Positions 6,121 through 63,363 of a stretch of DNA of 64,000 nt are shown one piece after another; the stretch's first letter is position 1, and each line of letters starts with the position of its first letter. Source of the DNA: Candidatus Magasanikbacteria bacterium GW2011_GWA2_56_11. Its GTDB lineage: Bacteria; Patescibacteriota; Patescibacteriia; Magasanikbacterales; UBA922. The stretch spans positions 2,000-65,999 of the forward strand of contig LCRX01000011.1 in assembly GCA_001004885.1 (NCBI GenBank). Reading direction: 5' to 3'. The notes below the pieces were generated by a model. It was given only the letters and a program-made list of their open reading frames with translations. It ran no database searches and had not been told where the DNA came from. Made by a program: the position numbers and the translations under genes.

Positions 6121-6141
6121 TTTGGCTTACATGTTACTGGT

Positions 6142-6789: not shown

Positions 6790-6998
6790 CTGGGTGCGGC
6801 CGGAGGCGGCGCGCTTGTGTATTTTGGCTTAGTTGGCATAATTTAGGTTATCGCTAATCTTGATTTAAATCAAGTTGAAACTTGGATTCGATAAACTAAG
6901 CGTTTGGCTTGCTTCGTCCTTGTTGGTTCGGGACTAATGAGGTATCTTGGATCATCCGCCGCCTGCTTTTTTGAGTTGAATCTTACCGTCTTGGATAT

Positions 6999-7030
6999 AA
7001 AAATAATGGCTAATTTTAGCCATTATTTTC
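6999..7030. terminator. perfect 14-bp-stem hairpin (aaaataatggctaa / ttagccattatttt), likely terminator of the AT-rich islet operon
   Basis: Inverted repeat read directly; sits 3' of the 7086-7871 minus-strand gene. Confidence 0.4.
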
Positions 7031-7085
7031 GAGCTCGCATACAGGGACAGCTTCCGAATGTTTATTCAATATAATCTACTGTAAT

Positions 7086-7871: not shown

Positions 7872-7882
7872 ATTTTAATGAT

Positions 7883-9058: not shown

Positions 9059-9212
9059 TTATAAGATGTCTTGGCTGATAGTATTTTTCTTGTCTATACT
9101 GATCTTTTAAGGGCATCTGCATAGCCAAAGCCACCTCTTTGTCAGCTTCACTTTCTAATTTGGAATATACTTGATCACCAATTATTTCTTTTATTTTATT
9201 TAAAAAATTCAT
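9027..9212 (-). CDS. small hypothetical protein (61 aa)
   Basis: ORF overlapping the annotated start of the 391-aa gene; coding status uncertain. Confidence 0.25.
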   Translation of the reverse strand: MNFLNKIKEIIGDQVYSKLESEADKEVALAMQMPLKDQYRQEKYYQPRHLISVLFKECELF

Positions 9213-9217
9213 AGTTT

Positions 9218-9379
9218 TTATTTATCCATTTTCTCCCTATAATCAATTTTAGATAAAACATCAAAAGCCTCAACCAAATCATCAGCACACTTCTGCGCAT
9301 CCTCAAAACTTAATTTAACGCCGGTTTTCTTTTCATATATATCCTGAAATTCTAGGACGAGTTCGTCGGAAGGAGGCAT
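9218..9379 (-). CDS. small acidic hypothetical protein (53 aa; MPPSDELVLEFQDIYEKK…), below the ORF-track size cutoff
   Basis: Hand-translated; in-frame stop 6 codons upstream of the ATG. Lies between tRNA-Gln and the islet genes. Confidence 0.3.
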   Translation of the reverse strand: MPPSDELVLEFQDIYEKKTGVKLSFEDAQKCADDLVEAFDVLSKIDYREKMDK

Positions 9380-9579
9380 ATTATTGAAGTTAATGACTAA
9401 TCCCAGTTTACTCTAAAGCCAGATCTAGTTCAATAAGTTCGAATCCTACTGAGAGTGGTGGTTAGTGCATTGCATTTTTAGCCAAAAATTTATAGTGTAA
9501 AAACCACTTCCGAACCGATTGTTTCTTCTCTCAACTAAAAAGAAAAACAGACTATTTTTAGTCTGTTTTCTAAATCGAG

Positions 9580-9650
9580 CTCGGGGCCAGGGATTCGAAC
9601 CCCGATAGGCAGAGCCAGAATCTGCAGTCCTACCATTAGACGAGCCCCGA
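9580..9650 (-). tRNA. tRNA-Gln (anticodon CTG)
   Basis: Cloverleaf folded by hand: acceptor TCGGGGC/GCCCCGA, D-stem GTCT/GGAC, anticodon stem GCAGA/TCTGC with loop TTCTGGC, T-arm CGGGG-TTCGAAT-CCCTG; 71 nt. G37 is atypical. Confidence 0.75.
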
Positions 9651-9802
9651 TTGTATCCGCCGCAGTCCGCCCGTTTGTACAGCGCTTAACATTATTTTTA
9701 TTTTGGTGATAAGCGCTTTGCCTGCCTGCGTCCATACGGACTTAGGCGGCAGGCGGGGGTGGATTGCTTTGTCTTTGTGACCTCACCGTAAATTTTACGC
9801 CG

Positions 9803-10795
9803 CTACTGGTTGATAATATAGCTTTCCTCGAAATCCTTTAGAAATCTTTCGCTCACGACTTTTACGTCCTGCCAGCGCCAGCGGTGGCTCAGAAAAACTT
9901 CCTCATTGAGAATAGCGTGGCGGCCGCCGTTCTCGATCAGATAAACCGTAGGCGCGGTTTTCGTTTTTATTAGCGAATCGTTACCCAGCCGTTTTTCGTT
10001 GAGAACGGGCGAGTAGCCTTCCTTAACCTCGGTTCCGTCCGTGAAGCCGTCGCGATCCGTGTCTTTGTCCCAGAGCTTGGTGCCATAGGAGAGCTCCTCG
10101 GATTTGCTAAGACCGTCATTGTCGCCATCCGTAAACCGGGAGTCGCTGACAGCGGGCGAGGTGAAGACCGCTACCGGCTGCCCGGTGCTGGTCTTGCCCT
10201 CGGGCACAAAATCATGCAGGGCGCTGAGCATTGTAGCATAAGGGTAGCGATAGTCAAGTCCGCGGTTAATTCCCGGTTCGTTGGTGACAAATTCCTGGCG
10301 GTCGTCGTCGTAGCCTTTGATAACCACGGTGTGATAGTCCGGGCCGCCGTTTTTGAAGTAGGGGTTTTTGAGCGCTTTGCCGTGGACCAAGGCAATCACC
10401 GGGCGGCCTTTGTCCATTTCCGCCTTAATCTGGTCCAGGGTCGGCCGGCTCACTGAGTAGGCCTCCCAGGAGTAGAAATTATTGATGATTTCGGCGATCT
10501 GGGCCGCATTGGTGTCTTTGCTAAAGCCGAGTTTGGTGTCCTCAAGATAGATAACATGCTTGATGCGGTTGACGGCTTCGTTTTTTCCGATTGTTTTTTG
10601 CCGCCCGCCGCGGTAATAAGAATCCACCATGACGGTCGCCGCCTCTTCGCAGGCGTCTTCCCAGGGTTGTTTCCAGACTCCTTGCGGGGCCTGCGACGTG
10701 TAGGGTACGTCCAGGGTGTTCGCGGCCGCGGCCGCCGGCAAGGGAACTACGCCGGAGAGAAAGGCCGTGATCAGGGCCAGGGCTTGGTAAAACAT
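9803..10795 (-). CDS. secreted protein with C39-like peptidase domain and Asp-rich TSP3-like Ca-binding repeats
   Basis: N-terminal signal peptide; …HTVVIKGYDDD… papain/C39-like region; DGDNDGLSKSEE…DKDTDRDGFTDGTE repeats. Confidence 0.55.
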   Translation of the reverse strand: MFYQALALITAFLSGVVPLPAAAAANTLDVPYTSQAPQGVWKQPWEDACEEAATVMVDSYYRGGRQKTIGKNEAVNRIKHVIYLEDTKLGFSKDTNAAQIAEIINNFYSWEAYSVSRPTLDQIKAEMDKGRPVIALVHGKALKNPYFKNGGPDYHTVVIKGYDDDRQEFVTNEPGINRGLDYRYPYATMLSALHDFVPEGKTSTGQPVAVFTSPAVSDSRFTDGDNDGLSKSEELSYGTKLWDKDTDRDGFTDGTEVKEGYSPVLNEKRLGNDSLIKTKTAPTVYLIENGGRHAILNEEVFLSHRWRWQDVKVVSERFLKDFEESYIINQ

Positions 10796-48456: not shown

Positions 48457-48993
48457 ATGTCTCTCTTCGATGTCGTTCTCCTCATCGTCATCGGCGGGTT
48501 CGCTCTTTTTGGACTTTGGTTTGGCCTCATCCATACGCTGGGTTCGCTCTTCGGAACCATTGTCGGCGCGTATATAGCCAGCCGCTATTATCAGCCTCTG
48601 GCCGACTGGCTTATCAAGGTAACTGGCTGGCCGGAAAACACCGCCCGGGTGGTGATGTTTATTCTGGCCTTCATTATTATCGCCCGCCTGGTAGGTTTTG
48701 CCTTTTGGATCGTGGACAAACTTTTGAGTATCATCACGCGCCTGCCTTTTATATCTTCGATCAACCGTATTTTGGGCCTGTTCCTGGGTCTGCTCGAAGG
48801 AGTCCTCACGATCGGTCTTCTGTTTTATTTTGTCGAACGTTTTCCGGTTTCGGAAAAACTTATGACCCTCTTAGCCGCCTCGCAGGTGGCGCCGTACGCG
48901 AGCAAAATGGCGAACTTGCTTGTCCCGCTTTTGCCGGACGCCTTACAGCTCTTGAAGTCCACCGTGGATTACGTGCAGAACAAGGTGCTATGA
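48457..48993 (+). CDS. cvpA: CvpA-family membrane protein
   Basis: 4-TM small protein with the CvpA pattern; TGA overlaps the tatD ATG. Confidence 0.65.
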   Translation: MSLFDVVLLIVIGGFALFGLWFGLIHTLGSLFGTIVGAYIASRYYQPLADWLIKVTGWPENTARVVMFILAFIIIARLVGFAFWIVDKLLSIITRLPFISSINRILGLFLGLLEGVLTIGLLFYFVERFPVSEKLMTLLAASQVAPYASKMANLLVPLLPDALQLLKSTVDYVQNKVL

Positions 48994-49844
48994 TCATTGA
49001 CACTCACTGCCACATTCAGTTTAGGGGACTCGACACCGACCGGGAGGCGGTAATCGCCCGCGGGCGGCAAAAGGGTTTGATCTTGAATCTCGTCGGCACG
49101 CAAAAAGATACCAGTCGGCGCGCGGTGGAGCTCTCCAGGCAGCATCCGGACATGTACGCTACTATCGGGACGCACCCCAACCATTTGTTTCCCACGCACA
49201 TAGACGAGGAAGAGAGCCATTTTATGTCGCGCGAGGAAGATTTCGACGAGGAATACTACGGTAATTTGTACCAGACCGCTCCCAACAAGATTATCGGGGT
49301 GGGGGAAACCGGGCTCGACCTTTATCACCTGCCGGCGGATATTCCGCTCGAAACAATTTTGTCCAAGCAGAAAGAAGTGTTTGTCAAACACGTGAATTTC
49401 GCGCTCAAATACGGCTTGGCGCTAGTCATTCATGTCCGTGAGGCGCACGAACAAATGATCGAGTTGCTCGCGTCGCTTCCGGCTCTTCCCCGGGCCACGG
49501 TTCATTGCTACACCGGCAACTGGGCGCTGGCGCAAAAATACCTGGACTTTGGCTTTTATATCGGTTTTACCGGCGTCATCACTTTTCCGCCGAAAAAATT
49601 GGATCCGGCGCCGCAACTCGCCTTGCTCGAAGCGGTAGAAAAAATACCTCTGGAGCGCGTAGTAGTGGAAACGGACGCGCCTTACCTGGCGCCGCAGGCC
49701 TACCGGGGGCAGCGCTCAGAGCCCTGGATGACGGCAGAGGTAATTAAAAAAATCGCCGCGGTGCGCGGTTTGGATTACGCGGCGGTTGAACAAGCCGTGT
49801 TTGAGAACTCGCTGCGTTTGTTTGCCAAAATCAAAGTGGCGTAG
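48990..49844 (+). CDS. tatD: TatD-family metal-dependent DNase
   Basis: IDTHCH…, …GETGLD…, VIHVREAH motifs. The 442-aa ORF-track extension is spurious. Confidence 0.85.
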   Translation: MIIDTHCHIQFRGLDTDREAVIARGRQKGLILNLVGTQKDTSRRAVELSRQHPDMYATIGTHPNHLFPTHIDEEESHFMSREEDFDEEYYGNLYQTAPNKIIGVGETGLDLYHLPADIPLETILSKQKEVFVKHVNFALKYGLALVIHVREAHEQMIELLASLPALPRATVHCYTGNWALAQKYLDFGFYIGFTGVITFPPKKLDPAPQLALLEAVEKIPLERVVVETDAPYLAPQAYRGQRSEPWMTAEVIKKIAAVRGLDYAAVEQAVFENSLRLFAKIKVA

Positions 49845-49849
49845 AATAA

Positions 49850-51929
<2,080 letters not shown>

Positions 51930-52194
51930 GCGTCGTTATAGTAATGAATATTTTCCGGCTTTTTAATAAGCCAAATATTCTCTATAACAGGGTCGTGAAT
52001 GGGAATACCCGATGAAGAAAGTCGCCTTTACGTGTTTAGTAGAGCCAAGTTTCTTCATCGGGGCTACAAAATCTTTTCATCCCTATCTCGCGACCCCTAA
52101 CCTCTCTTGGTGGACCGGCGGTTTACCTTCACAGCCCCGCCGTCGGTCCACCTTGCCCACCTTCAGGCCGTTTGTAAAAATGGATTGAAGATGA

Positions 52195-52227
52195 AAAACG
52201 ACCCTGTCCGGGTCGTTTTGATTTTGA
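52195..52227 (+). terminator. intrinsic terminator (aaaacgaccc-tgtcc-gggtcgtttt + T-rich tail)
   Basis: 10-bp GC-containing stem followed by ttttgattttg. Would end a ~295-nt transcript from the 51901 promoter. Confidence 0.45.
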
Positions 52228-52472
52228 TTGGGGAGGCGGATGTTCCACCTCCGTTTTGGCCCGAATTTCCGGGCCTTGGGGCCGCCGCCGTCGGCATCTG
52301 TCTGCGTATCCCCATTGAACACAGACAGACGTCCCCCGCGCCCTTCACGGCGGGTTGATTCCCCATTTTTCCGACGGCGGCGGCCCGAGCCTCGGCGCTC
52401 AGCGGCACTGGGTCGTAGTGCCGGAGCACACGAAGTCAACAGTATACTGCTCAGCAAGCGTGCGGTCAATAG

Positions 52473-52498
52473 AAAAACAGCCCTGCGGGGCTGTTTTT
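52473..52498. terminator. bidirectional hairpin aaaaacagccc-tgcg-gggctgttttt
   Basis: 11-bp stem with A/T-rich flanks, inside the gene-free region. Confidence 0.4.
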
Positions 52499-52809
52499 GT
52501 GGATGTGGGGGCGGTACCGATATGGGGGTACCGCGTCTCCTTGTGTTCCAGGCGTTGCCGCCGGCGTCGAGCCACCCCGAGGGGTGAAGTCAGCAGTCGA
52601 GCGGTGAGCGCTCGCGGCGGGACTGCTGAAAACAGTAGTTGCTGTGGCTCAAGACGCCGGCGGCGGCCTATGACCTCGGACAAAAAGGGGGGAGGGTAAC
52701 TTTTCTTTTTGGCCTTATTGGAACATCCGTAGTATAGCTCATCCGCCAGAGTTTGTAAAGCGCCCCGGCAGTTGAGTTTTCCGTCGCAGTTTAGTACAAT
52801 AACGGCACT

Positions 52810-53106
52810 ATGAAACTTACCCCAGAGGAAATCGAGTCGGTGGCGGTTCTGGCCCGGCTGTCTTTGACTGAGACGGAAAAAACTATGTATGCCGAGCAGC
52901 TGTCGGCGGTTTTGGAGTATGTGGAGCGTCTGGGCGAAGTTGATACCGACCAGGTGCCGGAGACCTGCCAGGTAACTGGGTTAGAAGACGTTACCCGCGA
53001 AGATAAGGTTCGCGACTGTGAGCCAGGCATCCGGCAGAAATTGATCGCCGCCTTTCCGGAAAATGACGACAATTACCTTAGGGTGAAGGCGGTTTTTGAA
53101 GGTTAG
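52810..53106 (+). CDS. gatC: Asp/Glu-tRNA amidotransferase subunit C
   Basis: 98 aa; LTPEEIESVAVLARLSLTE… GatC signature. Confidence 0.85.
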   Translation: MKLTPEEIESVAVLARLSLTETEKTMYAEQLSAVLEYVERLGEVDTDQVPETCQVTGLEDVTREDKVRDCEPGIRQKLIAAFPENDDNYLRVKAVFEG

Positions 53107-53128
53107 AAACTGCACGTATGTTTTCCCC

Positions 53129-53237
53129 GAGCGAGCGGCGGCTGGCAAATATGTTTTTAGCGGCTGCGGAGGAATACCCGTTGCGCTCTCGCACTCGTCC
53201 TCGCCGCTAAAAACAGATTACCCGGCACCGCTCGCTC
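53129..53237. repeat. giant hairpin repeat family 2, copy 2 (stem degenerate in middle; loop 36/38 identical to copy 1)
   Basis: gagcgagcggcggctggcaaatatgtttttagcggc-[loop]-gccgctaaaaacagattacccggcaccgctcgctc, in the gatC-gatA spacer. Confidence 0.7.
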
Positions 53238-53258
53238 GGAAAATTAGTCATAGCAGCT

Positions 53259-54689
53259 ATGAATCTTAACGAACTTACCATTGTCCAAGCCCGCTCCGGA
53301 CTGGACAAAAAAGAGTTCTCGGCGGTGGAATTAGCCGCGGCGTGTTTAGCGCGCATTGACGAGCGCAACCCGGCTCTGAATGCCTTTATTACCGTTTCCC
53401 ATGAAACGGCGCTCGAAGAAGCCAAAAAAGCCGATGAACAGATAGCCCGCGGACAAGCTGGCGCGCTGACAGGCATACCGTTCGCGGTCAAGGACGCTAT
53501 TTGTACCCAAGATACGCGCTCCACCGGAGCGGCCACGATTCTTTCGCAGTACGTGCCGCCGTTTGATGCTACAGTGATTGCGAAACTGCGCGCCGAGGGG
53601 GCGGTCTTGCTCGGCAAAAATAATTGCGACGCGTTCGGCCACGGCGCGAGCAACGAAAACTCGATGTACGGGCCGGTGAAAAATCCTCACGACGAAACCC
53701 GGGTCGCGGGCGGATCGAGCGGCGGCTCGGCCGCTGCCGTGGCCGACCAGATGTGCGTGTTTGCTATCGGCGAAGACACGGGCGGTTCTATCCGCCAGCC
53801 GGCCAGTTTTTGCGGCCTCGTCGGCCTGCGTCCCACTTATGGCCGCAATTCGCGTTACGGCATTATGCCGATGGCGAGTTCCCTCGACACTGTCGGCCCG
53901 CTGGCCAAAACGGTCGCGGACGCGGCTATCCTGATGGAGATTATGGCCGGCCGCGACGAGCGTGACGCCACGACCGTGCCCGACGCGGTGCCACCTTACG
54001 GCGAAGAGATAAAAAAATCGGTCAAGGGGCTGCGCGTGGGCATCCCCAGGGAATACTTCGAAATGGAGGGCATAGAGGAAGAGACCAAACGCATCGTACT
54101 GCAGAAAATCGAGTCGCTCAAAGAGCTGGGTTGCACGCTCCGCGAGGTGAGCCTGCCCCACACCAAGTATGCGATCGCGGTTTATTATATTATCGTGCCG
54201 AGCGAAGACAGCTCGAACCTGGCGCGGCTAGACGGCATACGCTACGGCACGCGCACTCCGGCCGGTTCGCTCTACGACACCTATGCCCGGTCGCGCGCCG
54301 AAGGCTTCCCCGAAGAAGTCAAACGCCGTCTGATGATCGGAACCTACGCCCTGTCGGCCGGCTATTACGACGCCTACTACCGCCAGGCGCAAAAAGTGCG
54401 CACGCTCATCGCCCGGGAATTTGACGCTGTCTTTGCCCAGGTTGACGTCCTGGCCACGCCGACGTCGCCGTTTCCGGCTTTTAAGCTGGGCGCCAAAAAA
54501 GACGACGTGCTGGCGATGTATTTGGCCGACATTTTCGCCGTTCCGGCCTCTGTCGCCGGTATTCCGGGCCTGTCGGTTCCGGCCGGCAAAACGGCCGCTG
54601 GTCTGCCGGTCGGATTGCAGCTTATCGGGCCGCGGCTGGGTGAAAGCGCGGTTTTGCGGGCGGGACATCACCTGGAGACCACCATCTAA
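53259..54689 (+). CDS. gatA: Glu-tRNA(Gln) amidotransferase subunit A
   Basis: Amidase signature GGSSGGSAAAVA, catalytic Ser-cisSer-Lys pattern. Confidence 0.9.
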   Translation: MNLNELTIVQARSGLDKKEFSAVELAAACLARIDERNPALNAFITVSHETALEEAKKADEQIARGQAGALTGIPFAVKDAICTQDTRSTGAATILSQYVPPFDATVIAKLRAEGAVLLGKNNCDAFGHGASNENSMYGPVKNPHDETRVAGGSSGGSAAAVADQMCVFAIGEDTGGSIRQPASFCGLVGLRPTYGRNSRYGIMPMASSLDTVGPLAKTVADAAILMEIMAGRDERDATTVPDAVPPYGEEIKKSVKGLRVGIPREYFEMEGIEEETKRIVLQKIESLKELGCTLREVSLPHTKYAIAVYYIIVPSEDSSNLARLDGIRYGTRTPAGSLYDTYARSRAEGFPEEVKRRLMIGTYALSAGYYDAYYRQAQKVRTLIAREFDAVFAQVDVLATPTSPFPAFKLGAKKDDVLAMYLADIFAVPASVAGIPGLSVPAGKTAAGLPVGLQLIGPRLGESAVLRAGHHLETTI

Positions 54690-54712
54690 CAGTCAATTTA
54701 CTTAAACCAGCT

Positions 54713-56122
54713 ATGAAAAAAGACACTATCCGCAAAATGCAGGAGCAGGCCAGCCATGTTTTTGGCTACGCCCTGCGCGAGGGCGATTACCGCGAGCCGT
54801 GGCAGATATTCCGGATCATGGCTGAGTTTGTCGAAGGCTATCAGTTTCTGTCGCAATTAAAAAACGAAGTTACGATTCTCGGCTCGGCGCGGATTCCCGA
54901 CGGGCACGAATTTTGCCGGGCGGCGCGCGAGCTCGCGCGGCTTTTGGGCCAGGCCGGTTTTACTGTCATTACCGGCGGCGGCCCGGGCATTATGGAGGCG
55001 GCTAATCGGGGAGCCAAGGAGGGCGGGGGAGAGTCTATCGGGCTCAACATCCAGCTGCCGTTCGAGCAGGTGATCAATCCGTACGTTACCAAATCCACTT
55101 CGTTTCACTATTTTTTTACCCGCAAGGTAATGCTCACCTCGCCGGCAAACGCGTTCGTGTATTTTCCGGGCGGCTTTGGCACGATGGACGAATTTTTCGA
55201 GGTGGCCGACCTGATGGAGCTGGGGCTTATGAGCCGCACGCCGATGGTACTGGTCGGGCGCAAGTTCTGGACGCCGCTGATGGAGTTTTTGCGCGCCAAA
55301 GCCTGTCCTTTCGGCTCGGTGCCCGAGGCGGACGTGGCGTCGTGGAAGATCGAGGACGATCCGGCGCAGGCGTTCGCGCACTTGAAAGAGGTCAAAGACG
55401 TCGTCCGGCCTTGCGAACTGGATTCGAATAACTTTCAGTGCCAGGGCAACATAGACTGGCGCATTTTCCGTATCATGGCCGAGCTGGTGGAAGGCTTCGA
55501 GTTTGTTACGAACCTGCAACACCGGGCAGTAACCGTTTTGGGAACCAAAGGGGTTAACCCCGGCACTTCGTATTATGACTCGGCGTACAATCTCGGTTCG
55601 ATTCTCGCCGGAGAGGGTTACGCGGTTATTACCGGCGGCCAGAAAGGCATTGCCGAGGCGGTAAACCAGGGGGCTTTCGAAAACGGCGGGGAGTCTATCG
55701 GCATTACCATGCGGATGAAAGGGGCGGTCAAGAGCAATCCGTACCTGACCAAGACCATCGGCTTCGATTTTCCGTTCACCCGCAAGCTGGCCGTGACCAC
55801 GCCGACCAAGGCTTTCGTGTTCTATCCGGGCGGCTTTGGCACGCTGCACCAGCTGTTTGAAGTGCTGACCTTGATCCAGACCAAAAAAATGCGTAAAGTG
55901 CCGGTGATTCTGATGGATCACGATTTCTGGCAGCCGCTGCACGAATTTATCAAAGAGGCGATGGTAACGGAGCTCGAGACCATTGCCGACGAGGATGACG
56001 AACTGTACCAGATAGTGGACAGCGAAGAGAGCGTGCTGCGCGTGATCGCGGATTTTGAATCGCGCCAGGCGCCGGTCTTGCTCGACCTGCCGGGCAGCGG
56101 ACTCTCGCCGGTGAAAGCGTAA
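54713..56122 (+). CDS. tandem-duplicated LOG/TIGR00730-family (Rossmann lysine-decarboxylase-like) protein
   Basis: Two complete repeats, each with GGGxGxMEA and PGGFGT(M/L) motifs (residues ~60-230 and ~270-450). Confidence 0.75.
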   Translation: MKKDTIRKMQEQASHVFGYALREGDYREPWQIFRIMAEFVEGYQFLSQLKNEVTILGSARIPDGHEFCRAARELARLLGQAGFTVITGGGPGIMEAANRGAKEGGGESIGLNIQLPFEQVINPYVTKSTSFHYFFTRKVMLTSPANAFVYFPGGFGTMDEFFEVADLMELGLMSRTPMVLVGRKFWTPLMEFLRAKACPFGSVPEADVASWKIEDDPAQAFAHLKEVKDVVRPCELDSNNFQCQGNIDWRIFRIMAELVEGFEFVTNLQHRAVTVLGTKGVNPGTSYYDSAYNLGSILAGEGYAVITGGQKGIAEAVNQGAFENGGESIGITMRMKGAVKSNPYLTKTIGFDFPFTRKLAVTTPTKAFVFYPGGFGTLHQLFEVLTLIQTKKMRKVPVILMDHDFWQPLHEFIKEAMVTELETIADEDDELYQIVDSEESVLRVIADFESRQAPVLLDLPGSGLSPVKA

Positions 56123-56129
56123 ACGATCT

Positions 56130-56894
56130 ATGTTTCCGTGGTTTCAATACACTGTCATTTATCTCGGCCCCATTCCGATCCGCGTCTGGGGCCTTTTCGT
56201 CGCGGCCGGGATGCTAGTCGCGCTGACTATTATTTATCGTCGGGGACGCCGGCTGGGAATGAACGGCGAACATTTACTCGATCACGCGCTCTGGATGATA
56301 GTATTAGGAATTATTTTCGCCCGGTTGTTCCATGTATTTTTCTACGAACCGGCCTACTTCCTGGCGCAGCCGGCAGAGATGGTGAAAATTTGGCACGGCG
56401 GCCTGTCGTCGTACGGCGGTTTTTTGGGGGCGGTGCTGGGTTTCCTCTGGTATGCCAAACGCCGCGGCGTGGGCAAAACTTCGTGGATCAAAATCGCGGA
56501 CCTCATGAGTTTTGCCGCGCTTTTTGGCTGGATCGTCGGGCGGCTGGGCTGCGTGATGATCCACGACCACCTGGGCCGGCCGTGCAACTGCTGGCTGGCT
56601 ATCCAGACGCCCGACGGGCCGCGGCTGGAGATGTCTATACTCGAGATACTGGGCCTGCTGCCGCTGGCGGCCGTGTTCGTGATCGCGCGCCAACAAAAGA
56701 AACCCGACGGCTGGTTTTTGGGCGTGATGCTGGTTTACTACGGCCTTCTGCGCTTTACGCTCGATTTTTACCGCGCCGTAGACTTGCCGAACTCCGATGC
56801 CCGTTACCTAGGGTTGACTCCGGCGCAGTATTTTAGTATTATTATGGCGGGTTTTGGGATCTCGCTGCTCCTCAAAATCAGGCAGAAAACCTAG
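56130..56894 (+). CDS. lgt: prolipoprotein diacylglyceryl transferase
   Basis: 7-TM Lgt topology with conserved Y/H/R and …GRLGC… signature region. Confidence 0.85.
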   Translation: MFPWFQYTVIYLGPIPIRVWGLFVAAGMLVALTIIYRRGRRLGMNGEHLLDHALWMIVLGIIFARLFHVFFYEPAYFLAQPAEMVKIWHGGLSSYGGFLGAVLGFLWYAKRRGVGKTSWIKIADLMSFAALFGWIVGRLGCVMIHDHLGRPCNCWLAIQTPDGPRLEMSILEILGLLPLAAVFVIARQQKKPDGWFLGVMLVYYGLLRFTLDFYRAVDLPNSDARYLGLTPAQYFSIIMAGFGISLLLKIRQKT

Positions 56895-56897
56895 CTT

Positions 56898-57368
56898 ATG
56901 GAGTTTAAAATTTACGCCAGCGCCGTTATTGAGCAGAACGGCCGAATATTGTTGGTGCAGGAGGGGAAGGCAGATAACTTTGAGAAGTGGAACCTGCCCT
57001 GCGGCCACCTGGAATTGGCCGAAATGCCGCTAGACGGCGCCAAGCGTGAGACATTTGAGGAAACGGCGCTCACGATTGAGGTTACCGGATTTCTCGGAGT
57101 CTATAGCTCTGTCGGCGCGAATCATTCGATCCGGTTCGTCTATTGTTCAAACGAATTCGCCGGCGAGGCAAAGCCGGGCGACGAGATATTGGCCGTAAAG
57201 TGGTTTGAGCCGGTCGAACTCCGGAACTTGGATGAACAGCGGTTCGTCAGCCCGCTTGTACTTGAGGCCGCCGTCGCTGATTACGTTAACGGTCGCCAGT
57301 TTCCGGCCACGGTTGTGCGCAAGATAACAATGGACAACAAAATTAAGTACCATGGAGAGGTCGCATAG
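56898..57368 (+). CDS. NUDIX hydrolase
   Basis: Nudix box G(x5)E(x7)REVFEETAL-like (…GGHLELAEMPLDGAKRETFEETAL…). Confidence 0.8.
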   Translation: MEFKIYASAVIEQNGRILLVQEGKADNFEKWNLPCGHLELAEMPLDGAKRETFEETALTIEVTGFLGVYSSVGANHSIRFVYCSNEFAGEAKPGDEILAVKWFEPVELRNLDEQRFVSPLVLEAAVADYVNGRQFPATVVRKITMDNKIKYHGEVA

Positions 57369-57442
57369 TTGGCCTAGTGCGCACGCTTGGAAAGCGTGTA
57401 TACCGAAAGGTATCGAGGGTTCGAATCCCTCCCTCTCCGCCC
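57354..57442 (+). tRNA. tRNA-Ser (anticodon GGA), long variable arm
   Basis: Acceptor GGAGAGG/CCTCTCC, 3-bp D-stem, anticodon loop TTGGAAA, variable hairpin TATACCGAAAGGTATC, T-arm GAGGG-TTCGAAT-CCCTC. The 3' terminus reads GCCCA. Confidence 0.85.
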
Positions 57443-57461
57443 ATTTCGGTCGCGAACGAAA

Positions 57462-58490
57462 CTAGGAATCTTGGCTCTGCTTAGCCAAGGCTGAGGGCGC
57501 CGTGCACCTGTCGTCCGGCTCGGGTAGCCCGGGTGTTGCCCACCCGTTGCCCAAGAATGGTACATCCGGTGCCACAAGCACACGGACCGCTTCGTACAGC
57601 GAAGACGGCGCGAGGTGAGCATAGCGTTCGGTGACTTGGACCGTGCTGTGTCCTAGGAGAATCTGCACGGAGCGAATCGGTACTCCGCGCGAGACGAGCT
57701 GCGACGCGAATGTGTGCCTCAGTACGTGCCAGCCTATCGGGCGGACACCTGCCCGGGCACACGCCCGGTACAGGAGTTTCGATGTGGTCGCCTCAGGAAT
57801 CGGCGTTCCGTCCCGACGAGGGAAGACGAGTCCGGATGTGCCCCGCCGGCTATCGAGAGCGCTCGCGAGGTCCGGGGCCATCGGGATGTGGCGAATGCGG
57901 TTGTTCTTCGGCGTTCCAAGAATCCCGCGCACGATGGACCGCTGCACTGTTATCAGGTGCGTCGTGAAAGTAATGTCGCGCCATTCGAGCGCGGTCAGCT
58001 CGCCTCGGCGCATTCCCGTGCGCAGTGCGCAGAGGATCATCGCGTGGGTCTGCGCATCTGGTGCTGCCGCGAGCAGCCGAGTGCAGTCCTCCGGGCTTAG
58101 ATAGTTGTCTTTGGGAGGAGCGGTCTTGAGCCAGTGCATGCGAGGGCTCCGCTCGAGTTCCTCCCACTCCTCTGCAGCGGATAGGGCGGCATGGAGTACC
58201 GTTAGATGGTTGTTGATCGTCTTCGCGCACAGGCCGTCAGCCAGGCGGTCTGCCTTGTAGCGCTCGATCCGCGCGAGAGTGATCTCGGCCAAGACTAGCG
58301 ACCCGAAAGCAGGAACGAGGTACCGGGCGAGGATGCCCTCCTTGGCGCGCACCGTTGACGGGCGGTTGTTCGTGCGAGCGTAGATGGTCATCCAGCGTGC
58401 CGAAAAGGGCCCGAACTGGATCAGGTCTTGTGCGCGCCGTTCAAGTGGCTCTCCGCGCGCCAGGCGTCCTCGTCTTGGGGGGCGAGCCAT
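57462..58490 (-). CDS. int: tyrosine-type site-specific recombinase/integrase
   Basis: R…HxxR…Y catalytic pattern (WHVLRHTFAS, LLGHSTVQVTERYAHL); adjacent to tRNA-Ser. Confidence 0.85.
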   Translation of the reverse strand: MARPPRRGRLARGEPLERRAQDLIQFGPFSARWMTIYARTNNRPSTVRAKEGILARYLVPAFGSLVLAEITLARIERYKADRLADGLCAKTINNHLTVLHAALSAAEEWEELERSPRMHWLKTAPPKDNYLSPEDCTRLLAAAPDAQTHAMILCALRTGMRRGELTALEWRDITFTTHLITVQRSIVRGILGTPKNNRIRHIPMAPDLASALDSRRGTSGLVFPRRDGTPIPEATTSKLLYRACARAGVRPIGWHVLRHTFASQLVSRGVPIRSVQILLGHSTVQVTERYAHLAPSSLYEAVRVLVAPDVPFLGNGWATPGLPEPDDRCTAPSALAKQSQDS

Positions 58491-58851
58491 CGGTTGCGGG
58501 AGCTCCCGTCGACGACGGCGGCGCGCAGTCGCCCGCGGCGCCCGGGCCCTCGTCGCCCGACAGTGCCGACGCCTCCGGCTCGGGCTCGTCGTCGAAGAGC
58601 CCTCGCAGCTTCTCGGAGCTCGAGCCGAACAGCATCTTCCTCAGCCGCCGGATCGAGGCCCCCTTGGTCTCCAACTCCCGGGTCAACGTGGTCAGGGTCC
58701 CTACAGCGCCTGCAAGCGTCTGATGGTCCTCGTCGCTCAGCACTGGGCGGACACGCTCGACGATGGCATCCAGATCCTCGGCGGAGACCTCCTTGCGCAC
58801 GGCCGGCCGCGGCGGCGGGCGCTTCTGGTCCGGCTTCTTCGTTCGCTTCAT
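58444..58851 (-). pseudogene. IS66-family transposase (TnpC) N-terminal fragment
   Basis: Tail of ORF 58441-59730 reads MKRTKKPDQ…LRKMLFGSSSEKL…, the leucine-zipper / FGxxSEK motif of IS66 TnpC N-termini. No zinc-finger or DDE region follows. It runs into the integrase gene. Confidence 0.45.
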
Positions 58852-59726
58852 CCCACCCCCGACAGCCGCTCCCGGAAGTCTCCGGTCAGCGGGTAGCCCA
58901 TCACCTCTTTGAGCGGACGGTTCGCTTGATGCGTCTGGTCGTCCTTGCCGCGGCCCGTGGTCAGGCCGAGGCGGACCCAGTTCGCCGCTCGATAGCACGT
59001 GCCCTTGAAGCGGCCCGGATCCACGAAGGTCTCCAGCCAGTAGACGGGATGTCCATACAGCCGCTCCCACTCCCGGGGCACCCGCTGGGCCATCTGACCG
59101 AGCAGGTGCGAGGCCAGGTGCTTGACCTCGACCCACGGAAGGATCAGGAATCGGCTGTTGTAGGCCAACAAGCGGATGTTGGCGCGGCGTGCCGCCCCGG
59201 ACCACCCGATGTACTGGTCGCGCGGACCCAGGTGACGCGGCGCCGAGCTCCACGTCAGGCACGCCAGGGGCCGGCCTCCGGCGCTCACCAGGAACTTCAG
59301 GTGCTCCCCGACGGGTTGCACGTAGCCCAGGTAGTGGTGGCCCTCCAGCAGGCCGTCGAACATGGGCTCGCTCTCGCTGCGCCGCACCTGCTCGAAGCTC
59401 AGCTCGCCCAGCTCCGAGAGCCGGCAGCGGACAGGCGTCTGGTCGACCGTCACCGGCCGACGACGCACGCGCCGGGCCAAGGGATTGGGTGGCACCTGCC
59501 GCACCGCCGGAAGCTCGATGTGGCCGCCACGGTGCAGCTCCAGCATCAGCCCGCGGCAGACCATGTCGCGAAGGCAGCCGTTGGTCTGCCTCCAGTCCCA
59601 GGCTTCGCAGAGCTTCGTCGACAGCACGCGCCGACTGGCGGAGGGGTGGGCCGCGATCAGCTCCTGGATGAAGCCGACCTCCTGCCGTGTGACCGTCCGC
59701 CCTCGATACTCGATGACCGCATCCAT
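58848..59726 (-). CDS. DUF4338-like protein (tentative; same Pfam family as Druantia DruA)
   Basis: ~293 aa from MDAVIEY; motif …VYWLETFVDPGRFKGTCYRAANW… recalled as DUF4338-like. Its TGA overlaps the ATG of the TnpC fragment (ATGA). Confidence 0.4.
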   Translation of the reverse strand: MDAVIEYRGRTVTRQEVGFIQELIAAHPSASRRVLSTKLCEAWDWRQTNGCLRDMVCRGLMLELHRGGHIELPAVRQVPPNPLARRVRRRPVTVDQTPVRCRLSELGELSFEQVRRSESEPMFDGLLEGHHYLGYVQPVGEHLKFLVSAGGRPLACLTWSSAPRHLGPRDQYIGWSGAARRANIRLLAYNSRFLILPWVEVKHLASHLLGQMAQRVPREWERLYGHPVYWLETFVDPGRFKGTCYRAANWVRLGLTTGRGKDDQTHQANRPLKEVMGYPLTGDFRERLSGVG

Positions 59727-60007
59727 GCACCGCGAGTACCGTTGGTGCGACTGGAACGCAAGAAGAAAAGCGACGTCATGTTCACGCGGCCGGAGCCACC
59801 CGTCGCCACACCGCCGCCGCATTCGTTTGGCTCGGATCGCCGCCACACAGCAGCACCTGGAGCTCGTGCGCCTGCAGCGCGGTGACCGGCTCCGGCCCGC
59901 AGCACCGAGCGGCAGACCTGGGCCATCCCGTCGATGCCGCGCCGAAAGTCCACCGGCTGGATGGCCACCAGCACCCGCATCTGCGGCGTGATCTGGATCA
60001 CCGGCCG
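59727..60007 (-). pseudogene. IS66 Orf2 (TnpB)-like fragment, degenerate
   Basis: …PVIQITPQMRVLVAIQPVDFRRGIDGMAQVCRSVL… matches the IS66 TnpB N-terminal consensus. Downstream sequence is out of frame or degenerate. Confidence 0.4.
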
Positions 60008-60441
60008 CGGCTCCAGAACGCCCGCGCTAGCCCGACCACGTCCACCGCGGTCCCCGCGCCCAGTCGCACCATCATATGCGCCCCGTCGCCGCTCGACAGC
60101 TCGACGACGATCCCGGCGTCGCTCCGCGGGGTCCACGGCGAAGTCCCGACCTCGCCGAGGAGCTGCGCCCCCTCCAACTCCACGAACGTGCCAGGCAGGG
60201 CCACGCCCGTGCTCTTCGAACCCTGGCCCTCGCCGAGCCGACTCTTGAGGGAGCCGTAGCCCACATCCACGAACTGCGAGACCCGGTACACACCGAGCCT
60301 GCGCGCAAGCGCGACCGCCTCCTCCCAGAGCGGCTCCGGCATCCGCACGCCCCTCCGCCGATGCCGCCGCCAGTCGGCGACTGCACGACGAGCTGCCTCG
60401 AGCCGCTGCTCGAGCACGCCGGCGTCCTTCGTCCCTCGCAT
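59998..60441 (-). CDS. IS66 Orf1 (TnpA)-like HTH protein (tentative)
   Basis: 147 aa; helix-turn-helix-like …PEPLWEEAVALARRLGVYRVSQFVDVGYGSL…; sits immediately 5' of the TnpB-like fragment, as in IS66 elements. Confidence 0.3.
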   Translation of the reverse strand: MRGTKDAGVLEQRLEAARRAVADWRRHRRRGVRMPEPLWEEAVALARRLGVYRVSQFVDVGYGSLKSRLGEGQGSKSTGVALPGTFVELEGAQLLGEVGTSPWTPRSDAGIVVELSSGDGAHMMVRLGAGTAVDVVGLARAFWSRGR

Positions 60442-62084
60442 GGCAGGTGATCCCTCCGAAACGTCCTGGCGGAGAGACTACCCGGCTCTCAACGGCAGTT
60501 CATGCAGGCCTGCCGAACGGACACCCCTGGCCGCGATCGCGGTCGCTGTTCGGGTGCACATGAAGGCGAAGCCGAGTCCAGACGCGGGCGGCCAGCCGAA
60601 GCCGCCCGGCGACCCGACCCCGGGCGACGAACGCCCACCCGAGCCGCCGAAGCCCTGGCAGCACCCGTACGCGTAATCCGAATGGGCGAAGGCTGGCGGG
60701 AGCCATGCGCTGGCTATCGCGCCGCCGAGTTCGCGCAGATGACCGCGACGCTGCTGGCACCGGCGGGACCCTCGACGCAACGAACCGAGGGCCCGGACGA
60801 TCCGTGACGGCGAGTCGGAGCGCGGGATTTCGCTTGCGGCTGGTGAGGCAGCGGCGGAAGATCGGTCCGTGGTCTCCGCCCGAGGAAAGGAGGTGGTGCA
60901 GTAACCCGAAGGTGCTGAATCGGGTGCATGCCAACGAGGGTGGATAGCTTGCACCGGCACGACCGCATGTCGTGCGGACTCGGTCGTGTGTCGCCCATCC
61001 GCGTCGGAGGGCGACGGCGGCTGTGCTTGTTCTGCGCCGCTTTCACGACGAGCCGGTGCTCCCTAAGACGTGCAACGCGTCCGAGGTCGCCCTATTGAGC
61101 TGCCGGGGGCGACGATCTCGCTCGTATCCCGTGACCGGACACACTCGGCACGGCCACGAGTTCGGCACTCCACCTTCCTGGCCGCTACACCAGCCCGAAA
61201 GCGCTACGGCGTCTCTATGCGCTGGCGGGTGTTGAGCCGCTGGGTTTGCCTCCAGGCAACTGCCGTGGGTGAGCCCGCGCGGGAGACGCTGCGCGCGCCG
61301 ACGATGGCGCGGACCGAGTGCGCTCGATCGGACGGGGAGCCGGCGGCCCCAGGAAGAGCGCCGGCAAGTTCTTGACCTGGCCCAGCCAGGGAATCGGTGC
61401 TCGCGATGGGCAGGCAGGAGGTGACTTCCACGCTGACCACGTGACACGAGCCAACACGGCGCCGCCGAGCGCTGATGCACTCCCGGCAGCGGGCTTCCTG
61501 CTTGCTCACGAGCACCGAGCACAAGATCTCGCGGCCTTCCTGCCGGAGGGCGTCACGGCCGACGCGCACGAAAACCAGCACCTGGGTAGGTGCTGGTGAG
61601 TAGTTTGGGGGCTGGTCCACGCGGTCGTCTGACCAGAATCAGAGGGATCTCGCCGCAGGCGGCGAACCCGTGCGCCCGGGCCTCCGGTACCGCCTGGCTT
61701 CGCTGGGTGGGACGGCGCGCCTGATGTGAGTAGAAGTCACACCAGGCGCGGCCGGCTGGACAAGCGTGTGCGCACGAGCGCCCTGGTAACCATCCCCGGG
61801 GGCATGCGGTTGAGCCTGAACGAACCAGGCCCGTCCTGGGTGTGCACGTGGAATCGCCTGGCGCAGCTTCGTAACGATAGCACATTGCGCCAAAAATGTC
61901 AATGATTCCATCAGTCTCGCTCGCGGCTGGCTGGAGGGACCGGAGTTGCGCGGCGTCGCGGGCAAGCCGGTTCAGTGCATCGTGTACGGCGAGAGGCCGG
62001 AGCAGCACCGATAGATGCCACGGTGACTGGAAGGGCGGGCAGCTCGTGGTAGGCCGCGATGAGGGTTCGAAGCCAGTCCCTGAG

Positions 62085-62123
62085 AGCCCGCACTGAATAC
62101 TTAGTATCGGAAGACCCGAGTGC
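62085..62123 (+). repeat. 38-bp direct repeat A flanking the Fic cassette
   Basis: cccgcactgaatacttagtatcggaagacccgagtgc; 37/38 identical to 63326-63363. Confidence 0.7.
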
Positions 62124-62131
62124 AGTCCGTT

Positions 62132-63184
62132 TTATATTTTTTTATATCTGGTCGTTCGTCCCTGTCCGATCCGTTCGATCCTTTTCAAGCGCAATAAAAC
62201 ATCGAGCGCCTGTGAAACCGTCGGTCTGGCAACCTTTGTTGCATGTACAATTTCAAGCGGCGTTGTCTCTACCACAGTTTCAAGATAGCGCCACACCAGA
62301 AGCTGCTTCGGAGACAATAATTTTTCGATATTCTCTCGGGAGAGCAAATCGATAGCTTGCTCTGCTTGGGCAAGTGAAATTTTTAGAAAAAAATCAAGCC
62401 ATGCGGTGACATTTTCCGCGTCAGTATTCAGCGTTTTTTGGCTTTTCCGTAAGGCGATGTAATACTCCGTTTTCGCTTCCTCAATCAATTTTTCGTGGGA
62501 GACATACGGCACGTATGCATACCCGACGCGGAGCATGAGCAGATTCGCGAGGATGCGCGACAGTCGGCCGTTGCCATCCTGGAATGGGTGGATTGCCAGA
62601 AATTCTACAAGAAAATTTCCGATAATAACGAGCGGGTGCACTTCTTTCATCGTGAGAGCTTTGATTGTCGAATCCACCAATTCCTGCATGCGCTTTGGCG
62701 TGAGATACGCCGGGGTTGTTTCAAAAATCACCGCAATCGGCTTGCCGTCCTCGTCATACATCTCCACGGTATTTTCTCCTTTTTTATACTCGCCACGATG
62801 TCTCTCGTCTTTGGACGAATACTTGAGCAGCTCCTTATGCAAATGTTTAATCGTGCTTTCGGTAAAGGGAATGTGCTTCCAAGAATTAAAGATATTTTCC
62901 AATAATTCATAGTATCCCTTCACCTCTTGCTGATCGCGGTCGGCAAATTTTTTTATCGAGAGACCCCGCATTAATTTTTCCACGTCCTCATCGGACATCC
63001 TTGCTCCTTCAATACGCGTTGATGCTCCGGTAGAGGTAATCAAAACCGAGCGCTTCAATCTGCCAAGGGCTTGCGGGTTTAATTTCGCGCCGCCGATCCA
63101 TTGACCTTTGAGATGGTCAATTTGACTGATGAGCGCCCATATGGACTCTGGTGTGTGAGAAATTCTTTTATTGAAGTTAAGCAT
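62132..63184 (-). CDS. fic: Fic/DOC-family protein, class II (N-terminal inhibitory SxxxEG motif) with C-terminal winged helix
   Basis: Fic motif HPFQDGNGRLSR; inhibitory motif STRIEG near the N-terminus; ~42% GC. Confidence 0.85.
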   Translation of the reverse strand: MLNFNKRISHTPESIWALISQIDHLKGQWIGGAKLNPQALGRLKRSVLITSTGASTRIEGARMSDEDVEKLMRGLSIKKFADRDQQEVKGYYELLENIFNSWKHIPFTESTIKHLHKELLKYSSKDERHRGEYKKGENTVEMYDEDGKPIAVIFETTPAYLTPKRMQELVDSTIKALTMKEVHPLVIIGNFLVEFLAIHPFQDGNGRLSRILANLLMLRVGYAYVPYVSHEKLIEEAKTEYYIALRKSQKTLNTDAENVTAWLDFFLKISLAQAEQAIDLLSRENIEKLLSPKQLLVWRYLETVVETTPLEIVHATKVARPTVSQALDVLLRLKRIERIGQGRTTRYKKI

Positions 63185-63325
63185 AGTTAATCTTATGTAT
63201 TAACTATATGAGATTATATATGATTGACAGACGCACGTCAAGGCGATTAAATTTGATTAATGATTTTCTCTCAAACATTAGCCAAAATGAGGGCGGGGCG
63301 ACCCGAGTAGTTCGAGCCCACTAGT

Positions 63326-63363
63326 CTCCGCACTGAATACTTAATATCGGAAGACCCGAGTGC
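63326..63363 (+). repeat. 38-bp direct repeat B flanking the Fic cassette
   Basis: ccgcactgaatacttaatatcggaagacccgagtgc. Confidence 0.7.

Follow-up and report, generated by a model that had tools for sequence, protein, structure and literature searches.

The window analysed here is a 64,000-nucleotide stretch of contig LCRX01000011.1 (positions 2,000 to 65,999) from Candidatus Magasanikbacteria bacterium GW2011_GWA2_56_11. In it, an island rich in guanine and cytosine (GC) adjoins a tRNA-Ser gene and contains a gene of the DUF4338 family (PF14236, named after DruA of the Druantia defence system) amid the debris of an IS66-type insertion sequence (IS). Comparison with related loci indicated that a widespread and apparently undescribed four-gene subgroup of the IS66 family has this DUF4338 gene among its fixed core genes, and that the gene is neither cargo nor an insertion. 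Taking the locus as a whole, it is highly probable that a relic island from a high-GC donor, carrying a dead copy of such a four-gene IS66 element, lies at tRNA-Ser, and that the IS operon includes the DUF4338 gene as a fixed member, the product of this gene being a proposed Mom-like partner of the transposase. The feature in the window is in itself ordinary, namely a dead IS in a relic island; the wider interest lies in the four-gene architecture.

The DUF4338 protein of the window scored 96.4 bits with PF14236 (cut-off, 27), and the match covered profile positions 50 to 224 of 297. The first-pass annotation of this DNA, made from the sequence alone, had tentatively assigned a gene of about 293 amino acids (aa) to DUF4338, and this assignment was confirmed. 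The plus strand reads TCAT at 58848 to 58851, corresponding to ATGA on the minus strand, where the TGA stop codon of the DUF4338 gene overlaps the ATG of a tnpC fragment (tnpC'), as had been annotated. At least 8000 homologues of nearly the same length and approximately 70% identity were found, mostly on contigs of 1 to 5 kb, a size characteristic of repeats at which assemblies break.

A genomic survey with one genome per species yielded at least 576 loci, 80 of which were kept for counts. The 80 loci span at least ten phyla (Acidobacteriota, Planctomycetota, Gemmatimonadota, Myxococcota, Desulfobacterota, Pseudomonadota, Actinomycetota, Bacteroidota, Fibrobacterota, and Kiritimatiellota), and the survey includes the isolate Edaphobacter aggregans DSM 19364. 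The neighbours of the DUF4338 gene in these loci were orf1, tnpB, and tnpC. tnpC was located directly downstream of the DUF4338 gene in 77 of the 80 loci, and tnpB was located upstream in about 71. The DUF4338 stop codon overlapped the tnpC start codon in 71 loci, as ATGA in 55 and as GTGA in 16. Intact elements of approximately 3.4 to 4 kb have the order left inverted repeat (IRL), orf1, tnpB, DUF4338, tnpC, and right inverted repeat (IRR). Their genes encode an Orf1 of about 140 aa (130 to 150), a TnpB_IS66 protein of about 120 aa, a DUF4338 protein of 292 aa, and a DDE_Tnp_IS66 transposase of 500 to 580 aa, and the intact relatives carry PF03050 (TnpC) and full PF05717 (TnpB) genes. The copy closest to that of the window (L007) showed 88% protein identity and 82% DNA identity. 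In the intact relatives, 4-bp overlaps were found at orf1/tnpB and at DUF4338/tnpC, and a gap of approximately 50 to 60 bp separates tnpB from the DUF4338 gene. The earlier description of ATGA as the junction normally used by tnpB and tnpC was thus not borne out.

The median identity to one reference element was 30% for Orf1, 59% for TnpB, 65% for the DUF4338 protein, and 53% for TnpC. On these identities, the DUF4338 protein is the best-conserved protein of the element and is under strong constraint. Because its stop codon overlaps the tnpC start codon in 71 of the 80 loci and its conservation is the highest, the DUF4338 gene is core and not cargo. The first-pass annotation had placed the gene in, or inserted into, an IS66 unit, with an unusual IS66 cargo architecture as one of two alternatives. 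The IS66 architecture held; the cargo or insertion did not, in view of the gene's place next to tnpC in 77 of the 80 loci and the overlap kept in 71.

The ends of the IS were defined by comparing multi-copy elements within genomes; the inverted-repeat finder did not pick them out. The repeated units were 3432, 3955, and 4689 bp long, and their copies were 97.7 to 100% identical (100%, 99.98%, and 97.7%). The 3432-bp element is from Desulfosarcina (L056, L058, and L059). They end in inverted repeats of approximately 26 bp of the GTGTCCTTTCGGCAAGCGTGCATGAA type, and five 8-bp target duplications were identified (CATTAACC, CGATCATG, GAACGGCG, GTTTCAGC, and CCAGGTCC). Identical copies, inverted repeats, and 8-bp duplications are the hallmarks of an active element of the IS66 family, the definition of which is reportedly due to Han and colleagues in 2001 and Gourbeyre and colleagues in 2010.

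Some loci depart from this pattern. One copy in L021 (Bryobacterales, CAVTWI010000001.1) is flanked by a 21-bp direct duplication (GGAGCTACGCGATCTATGGTC) and not by one of 8 bp, and the copy in L059 has no matching target duplication. In three Burkholderiales metagenome-assembled genomes (L026, L035, and L049), DUF4338 and tnpC lie on one strand, and tnpB and orf1 lie downstream on the opposite strand. In L010 and L025, neither tnpB nor tnpC could be detected within 2.5 kb after a close DUF4338 homologue, and in these cases DUF4338 may be partnered with a different transposase family. Among the plasmids of PLSDB, DUF4338 homologues were found only in Candidatus Thiodictyon syntrophicum. The copy on its plasmid pTs485 (L088, 282572 to 283450) is surrounded by IS91, IS4, and integrase genes, a cluster by which a DUF2235 gene is split, and a second match in this organism underlies a gene annotated as an ISAs1 family transposase.

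A sister clade of DUF4338 proteins, with 35 to 40% identity and the same length, was found directly upstream of Tn5-like transposase genes with a 4-bp overlap. The sister-clade elements are 2363 to 2365 bp long, have inverted repeats, and occur as identical copies in different contexts. The motifs HYLGY, RD..IGW, N.RFL.LPW, LAS, ETFV, and CYRAANW..G.T.GRG are common to both clades. An exhaustive profile search gave 13,258 representatives of 50%-identity clusters at an expectation value (E) of at most 1e-3, and 2,309 at E of at most 1e-30. The best 150 of the matches included in-frame fusions of three kinds, namely DUF4338 followed by a Tn5-like transposase, an IS66 DDE transposase followed by DUF4338, and DUF4338 followed by an IS630-like DDE_3 transposase. 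The Tn5-like coupling and the fusions show that the partnership recurs with unrelated transposases. One fusion without a transposase was also seen: in P0460 (594 aa), DUF4338 is joined to an adenylate/guanylate cyclase catalytic domain, which may point to use of the module in signalling or defence.

An AlphaFold2 model of the DUF4338 protein based on an alignment of both clades had a pLDDT score (predicted local distance difference test) of 83; an earlier model from 18 close homologues had a score of 68. The model consists of an N-terminal domain resembling a winged helix-turn-helix (wHTH; residues 1 to 66), a basic linker, and a Gcn5-related N-acetyltransferase (GNAT) domain (residues 99 to 292). 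In Foldseek searches of PDB, Mom of phage Mu (8bv8) was the top match of each model, at E 9e-4 for one and 2e-6 for the other. The better model gave 72 PDB matches at E of at most 1e-3, and all those listed belong to the GNAT superfamily. A GNAT fold of the DUF4338 domain is therefore shown at the level of the predicted structure, and agrees with the published assignment of DUF4338 as a GNAT domain (PMC10853773). A sequence-only search of PDB with the DUF4338 profile gave no match.

Mom, itself a GNAT, modifies N6 of adenine in double-stranded DNA by means of Gly-tRNA-Gly, and its residues H58, Y59, R111, S124, D149, R151, and Y159 are important or essential (PMC13219725). When 36 DUF4338 proteins were compared with 10 phage Mom homologues by hhalign, an alignment of 133 columns was obtained with E 5e-4 and a probability of 31%. 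Single-sequence and global runs gave no signal, and the Mom family alignment was needed. In this alignment, H131/Y132, R192, S206, D236, and Y245 of the DUF4338 protein fall on H58/Y59, R111, S124, D149, and Y159 of Mom, and R239 is one position off R151. H131/Y132, R192, S206, and Y245 are invariant across both IS-coupled clades, and D236 is variable.

Based on these observations, the four-gene IS transposes in the manner of IS66 elements, with a DDE TnpC, inverted repeats of approximately 26 bp, and 8-bp duplications, the DUF4338 gene being translationally coupled to tnpC. We propose that the DUF4338 protein would combine a DNA-binding wHTH domain with a Mom-like GNAT acyl- or aminoacyl-transferase. 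From the coupling, the fusions, and the wHTH domain, we infer that it may act with the transposase at the transposition complex, and the association with transposase genes points to a role in transposition. Its predicted structure suggests that its chemistry may resemble that of Mom, i.e., acyl or aminoacyl transfer onto DNA. The most likely action would be covalent modification of DNA at the element ends or at the target, and a modification of the transposase or a host factor would be less likely. Either action would serve the element and not host defence, and marking of ends or target, protection of the transposon DNA, and regulation would all be possible. A much broader reading can be offered only as a doubtful one, namely that DUF4338 proteins are Mom-like DNA-modifying partners of DDE transposases in at least three unrelated IS families (IS66, Tn5-like IS4, and IS630-like), that many IS mark their own ends or targets, and that type I Druantia recruited DruA from such modules.

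The positions of the features of the window copy and of the island are summarised in Table 1.

Table 1. Features of the tRNA-Ser island in the window, in order of position (59892/59893 denotes a join between two nucleotides).
Feature	Position	Strand	Evidence	Remark
tRNA-Ser(GGA)	57353-57443	+	ARAGORN; Rfam tRNA, 56 bits	integration site, attL side
tyrosine integrase	57462-58490	-	Pfam Phage_integrase, E 7e-30	5'-truncated
tnpC' open reading frame (ORF)	58441-58851	-	IS66 TnpC residues ~9-120 left (58848-58534)	136 aa
DUF4338 ("DruA-like") gene	58848-59726	-	PF14236 DruA/DUF4338, E 2.3e-27	intact, 292 aa from ATG
tnpB 3' fragment	59788-59886	-	tblastn, 67% identity, E 1.7e-8	residues ~87-119 of IS66 Orf2
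assembly-variable join	59892/59893		blastn of L096, L097, L098, and L099 against the window	
tnpB 5' fragment	59900-60001	-	tblastn, 70% identity, E 3.5e-13	residues 1-34; contains MRVLVAIQPVDFRRGIDGMAQV
orf1	59998-60441	-	tblastn, 36-38% identity, E 5e-15	147 aa, full length; positional equivalent of IS66 tnpA
IRL	60499-60524	-	same ~26-nt sequence in intact relatives	GTGTCCGTTCGGCAGGCCTGCATGAA
non-IS high-GC stretch	60525-62060			~1.5 kb, 66-71% GC, without assignable gene
distal island boundary	62061-62123	+	degenerate tRNA-Ser 3'-end copy GAGGGTTCGAAGCCAGTCCCTGAGAGCCCGC, then first 36-nt direct repeat copy (62088-62123)	

In the order read from the tRNA gene, the minus strand carries the integrase, tnpC', the DUF4338 gene, the TnpB fragments, and orf1. 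The two tnpB fragments are in different frames, and 137 bp are missing between them relative to L007. The 5' fragment matched Pfam TnpB_IS66 with E 0.015 over 27 residues only, and the TnpB hidden Markov model (HMM) matches in Pfam (PF05717) and NCBIfam (NF033819) were below threshold, with E 0.015 and 0.036, respectively. tnpC' was 49% identical to an intact IS66 TnpC over 112 aa (residues 9 to 120; tblastn E 2e-21), its Pfam LZ_Tnp_IS66 match (E 0.015) was below threshold, and it lacks the zinc-finger and DDE parts. Neither a DDE domain (PF03050) nor a right inverted repeat was found in the window copy. Orf1 has a sequence pattern like that of a helix-turn-helix (HTH) and matched no HMM family. 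No Pfam family was found for the window protein or for 26 relatives (27 proteins aligned), and a profile search of PDB was also empty. The earlier call of an IS66 Orf1-like HTH ORF is thus kept insofar as the protein is a homologue of the first gene product of the intact elements, and a Pfam family for it is lacking. The IRL sequence of about 26 nt was also found 60 to 110 bp upstream of orf1 in L001, L003, L004, and L007, and it makes up the exact termini of the identical multi-copy elements with 8-bp target duplications. Since the HMM matches are below threshold, the IS66 assignment of the window copy rests on homology to the intact elements; this homology upheld the decayed TnpB fragment and the TnpC N-terminal fragment of the first-pass annotation, whose proposed test by IS66 HMM thresholds failed throughout. 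Comparison with the complete elements also allowed the deletion breakpoints in tnpC and tnpB to be mapped. Judged by its remaining parts, the window copy is a remnant of an IS66-family member and not a functional member. It is dead and unable to move: tnpC is cut at approximately residue 120, tnpB is broken, and the right end is gone.

The stop codon of the integrase gene is located 19 nt from the end of tRNA-Ser, in agreement with the annotated tyrosine integrase abutting the tRNA. Relatives of the integrase are 360 to 380 aa long, and the closest showed 57% identity. The relatives at 50 to 57% identity come from mixed phyla, and the plasmid relatives are only distant. Homology starts at 58472, which corresponds to residue 41 of the relative P0242 in a BLASTP alignment, and approximately 40 N-terminal codons are missing. 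Other assemblies call the integrase as a protein of 309 aa starting at 58391. The DNA homology to L007 stops at approximately 58575. Because integrase homology begins at 58472 and the tnpC' remnant extends to approximately 58534, a single deletion with its breakpoint between these positions fused the 5'-truncated integrase gene to the 3'-truncated tnpC. In L001 (4809 to 7680) and L002 (3134 to 6005), a four-gene element is intact except that its tnpC is broken near the 3' end by three consecutive tyrosine recombinase genes (recombinase-in-trio); its right inverted repeat is located at 8202 in L001. The tnpC of the window is likewise interrupted by a tyrosine recombinase gene.

The island extends from 57444 to 62087 (approximately 4.6 kb) and consists mostly of IS debris. 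The GC content is 0.55 to 0.58 before tRNA-Ser, 0.62 to 0.64 over the integrase gene, 0.68 to 0.73 from 58.2 to 62.0 kb, and 0.43 to 0.49 beyond 62.1 kb, which supports the earlier statement that foreign high-GC DNA begins at tRNA-Ser. On the plus strand, the T-arm 11-mer GAGGGTTCGAA of tRNA-Ser (57415 to 57425) recurs from 62061, just inside the distal GC boundary. A targeted search found these two exact copies in the window (57415 and 62061), compared with 0.07 expected. The att (attachment-site) direct repeat was not among the top families of a generic repeat finder, and was seen by cross-assembly comparison and the 11-mer search. A tyrosine integrase at the 3' end of the tRNA and a distal repeat of the tRNA 3' end, as in tRNA-targeting islands, are thus both present. 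In a contig from another sample (L104), an exact 21-nt copy of the tRNA-Ser 3' end precedes the same 36-nt repeat and is followed by different DNA; this sequence is an alternative occupant or allele of the same att site. The reproduction of the outer junctions in other assemblies, described below, and this alternative allele indicate that the outer junctions are real and that the site is an integration hotspot. It is concluded that an integrative element derived from a high-GC donor entered at the 3' end of tRNA-Ser and that the island is its genuine relic. Since the integrase is 5'-truncated, the island is probably immobile.

The high-GC DNA beyond the IRL (60.5 to 62.1 kb) had no match in Pfam (longest ORFs), Rfam, or the PLSDB plasmids (blastn), consistent with the earlier remark that it contains no assignable genes. 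The spread of GC between codon positions was 0.02 to 0.19 in this stretch (weak periodicity) versus 0.34 to 0.47 in the IS genes. This stretch probably represents decayed or non-coding remains of the integrated element that the IS had entered. A Cys-cluster proposed on the minus strand corresponds to the ORF at 61204 to 61620, for which no Pfam family was found and no wider homologue search was made; a Cys-cluster gene at 61.2 to 61.6 kb was rejected for want of Pfam support.

Adjoining the island, a 1.24-kb cassette (62088 to 63363) contains a single Fic gene at 62132 to 63184 on the minus strand (PADLOC SoFic, E 9e-41). The cassette is flanked by 36-nt direct repeats (62088 to 62123 and 63328 to 63363) with one mismatch between the copies, and each repeat copy is preceded by its own, different degenerate sequence like a tRNA 3' end. 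L104 spans exactly one repeat unit. By its appearance, the cassette is a second element, without an integrase, that was inserted in tandem at the tRNA-Ser att site used by the island. A second composition anomaly was observed at 6000 to 10000 of the window, where the GC content falls to 0.36 to 0.44 next to tRNA-Gln (9579 to 9650), and this region may be another tRNA-associated island.

The segment from 48848 to 59892, which covers housekeeping genes of the candidate phyla radiation (CPR), tRNA-Ser, the integrase gene, tnpC', and the DUF4338 gene, was 100% identical in two other public assemblies, in one of them on a k141 contig. Five further contigs carry the Fic gene; four of the five, from other samples, cross 62087 and run 330 to 420 bp into the high-GC DNA. 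The matches at the outer junctions were 99.8 to 100% identical in independent assemblies and samples. Inside the IS, the assemblies differ at 59892/59893, where the window skips 137 bp of tnpB and the deletion is flanked by short GC-rich microhomology. Scaffold_761 (L098, ERZ28564302) matches the window from 63592 to 59893, continues with 153 bp of the missing tnpB middle (L098 10550 to 10702), and then ends, about where the DUF4338-bearing contigs begin. Its tnpB middle contains an in-frame TAG where the relatives have Tyr or Phe (…KVLV*DGQGFW…), and tnpB is therefore a pseudogene in that assembly too. Consequently, tnpB is inactivated under the reading of the window and under that of scaffold_761 alike. 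Scaffold_3888 (L096 1 to 4135, ERZ28564302) is joined from 59892 to 4.1 kb of unrelated DNA of 60 to 71% GC, with genes for a Fer2/NAD-binding reductase, a glyoxalase, a GGDEF protein, and one hypothetical protein. This continuation may be a mis-join, a larger variant of the island, or an insertion into tnpB. Contig L097 stops at 59892, and several contigs end at 61667 to 61755. All three assemblies show the tnpB 3' fragment and the DUF4338 gene in one uninterrupted stretch. At 63592/63593, all four other spanning contigs (three assemblies) hold an extra 98 bp that is absent from the window, so that the window contig has either undergone a small deletion or been left with a gap in assembly.

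These data bear on whether the locus was correctly assembled, a concern already raised in the first-pass annotation. That the whole high-GC segment is an assembly or binning chimera, foreign to the CPR genome, would accord with the sharp compositional contrast, with the disagreement of the three assemblies at 59892/59893, one of which enters the unrelated high-GC reductase, glyoxalase, and GGDEF genes, and with the contigs that end at 61667 to 61755. However, both outer junctions were reproduced at the identities given above, including by the k=141 contig that spans tRNA-Ser to DUF4338, the tRNA stands at one edge of the island and a degenerate copy of the tRNA 3' end at the other, and an alternative allele occupies the same att position. 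A chimera of the whole island is very improbable, and was rejected because the outer junctions recur in independent assemblies and samples; the concern remains justified for the internal join, which differs between assemblies. There is close to an even chance that this join alone is artefactual, in which case the 137-bp gap would stem from misassembly or from variation between strains, and the true tnpB would be full length with a premature TAG. The tnpB middle with its in-frame TAG in scaffold_761 and the end of L097 at 59892 agree with such an artefact, but the window contig and scaffold_3888 each continue differently, and microhomology of the kind found at real deletions flanks this one. 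Because tnpB would be inactive either way, the identification of the element is unchanged.

Given a genuine island, the nature of the DUF4338 gene can be weighed. The protein passes the Pfam model now named DruA, and a defence-type Fic gene lies next door, so that a relic of type I Druantia, captured as an IS66 passenger or inserted into the IS, might be considered. No PADLOC family, including the DruA models, matched the protein at E of at most 0.01, and NCBIfam gave no match. The window contains no ORF of at least 1000 aa (the longest is 891 aa), hence none of the size of DruE, and no Druantia component was found among its largest ORFs; the DruE-like helicase whose homologues the first-pass annotation had suggested seeking is thus missing from the window. 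Moreover, the DUF4338 gene keeps the same position in 77 of 80 elements across many phyla and its overlap in 71, and its product is the most conserved protein of the element, whereas cargo would be sporadic. A Druantia remnant was rejected on the grounds of no PADLOC match, no partner genes among the largest ORFs of the window, and a fixed position in the IS. Such an origin is extremely unlikely, and the suggestion of a defence gene captured by a mobile element is abandoned. It is improbable, to a lesser degree, that the CPR host has exapted the gene, so that selection there would have kept it whole while its neighbours broke. Its ORF is full length and departs from the family at only 1 of 117 positions invariant in 17 relatives (116 kept), while tnpB, tnpC, and the integrase gene are damaged; however, Orf1 and the IRL are also intact, and recent decay explains the pattern equally well. 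In addition, the tRNA-Ser site is variable in the population, as L104 has different DNA at the distal boundary and the divergence of L096 begins within the IS. With regard to the mechanism only, the substrate acetylated by the GNAT domain might not be DNA but a protein, such as the transposase or a nucleoid protein, or else charged tRNA, the target of the TacT/AtaT toxins. Most Foldseek matches after Mom are protein or small-molecule N-acetyltransferases (RimI, Naa, and SpeG), and the common Tyr and cofactor-loop residues are general GNAT features. On the other hand, Mom ranked first with both models, residues essential in Mom are the aligned counterparts of the H-Y dyad and of the Arg/Ser pair, and the N-terminal wHTH domain and the fusions directly ahead of a transposase DNA-binding domain place the enzyme on DNA. 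We consider this alternative rather unlikely on balance, and a protein-acetylating role a serious rival all the same. Several points weigh against our preferred interpretation of a dead four-gene IS66 copy encoding a Mom-like transposase partner. The IS66 HMM matches of tnpB and tnpC in the window are below threshold (E 0.015 to 0.036) and Orf1 has no family, and the right inverted repeat is absent, so a complete element cannot be shown for the window copy. The linkage of orf1, the IRL, and the 60.5- to 62.1-kb stretch to the DUF4338 gene is found in the window contig alone, and scaffold_761, which has orf1, stops just short of the DUF4338-bearing stretch. Recent decay and selection on the host could each account for a DUF4338 gene that is intact while its neighbours are broken. 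The likeness to Mom is modest, with the hhalign probability of 31% and a Foldseek template modelling (TM) score of 0.57 normalised to the target, and several of the positions common to Mom and DUF4338 are generally important in GNATs.

In the searchable literature, no link between DUF4338 and IS66 and no connection of DUF4338 with transposons was found, although individual elements may be catalogued in ISfinder or TnPedia; no assigned function was found there for DruA, and a paper on YprA helicases contained nothing about DruA itself. The family named after Druantia DruA (approximately 13,000 clusters at 50% identity) was a transposon gene in every context examined here, and a Pfam "DruA" match alone should not be taken as a defence gene in annotation. 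The Mom-like fold and the conserved key residues lead to a testable hypothesis for DruA, i.e., acyl or aminoacyl transfer onto DNA. If it is true, these proteins would form a new class of transposase accessory protein, which would bear on the regulation of transposition and possibly on transposon-based tools.

Compared with known systems, the island resembles tRNA-targeting integrative islands in its integrase at the tRNA 3' end, in the distal copy of that end, and in a site that is otherwise occupied in other strains. Unlike functional islands of this type, it has an integrase without approximately 40 N-terminal residues, a degenerate distal repeat, and a length of only approximately 4.6 kb; these features, together with the IS debris, mark it as a relic and not as a functional element. 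With DruA of type I Druantia (the anti-phage system DruABCDE), the window gene has only the DUF4338/PF14236 domain in common; it has no DruB to DruE neighbours, including the large helicase DruE (DUF1998), and its family members lie inside mobile elements bounded by inverted repeats. The sister clade resembles IS50/Tn5-type members of the IS4 family, since its partner transposase has Tnp_DNA_bind, DDE_Tnp_1, and Dimer_Tnp_Tn5 domains and its elements are 2.36 kb long, whereas the window element belongs to the IS66-coupled clade. Classical IS50 is not known to have such an upstream gene. Like Mom of phage Mu (PDB 8bv8), DUF4338 proteins occur in elements that transpose by a DDE enzyme and combine a GNAT core with an HTH-type module. 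They differ from Mom in an identity of approximately 19%, in the HTH, which is an N-terminal domain in DUF4338 and an insertion in Mom, and in a variable residue at the position aligned with Mom D149; DUF4338 is at most a putative member of a Mom-like functional class. The intact relatives resemble canonical IS66/IS679, with which they have in common a DDE_Tnp_IS66 TnpC with an N-terminal leucine-zipper region, an upstream Orf2/TnpB (PF05717), a first ORF that is small and shares 4 bp with the start of tnpB, terminal inverted repeats of approximately 26 bp, of which the window keeps the IRL only, and 8-bp target duplications. Their first ORF matches no Pfam family, including HTH_Tnp_1, and the inverted repeats of the four-gene elements begin with GTGTC, whereas those of canonical IS66 begin with GTAAGCG. 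Canonical IS66 has the order tnpA-tnpB-tnpC, whereas the four-gene elements carry the DUF4338 gene as a fourth gene between tnpB and tnpC, coupled to tnpC.

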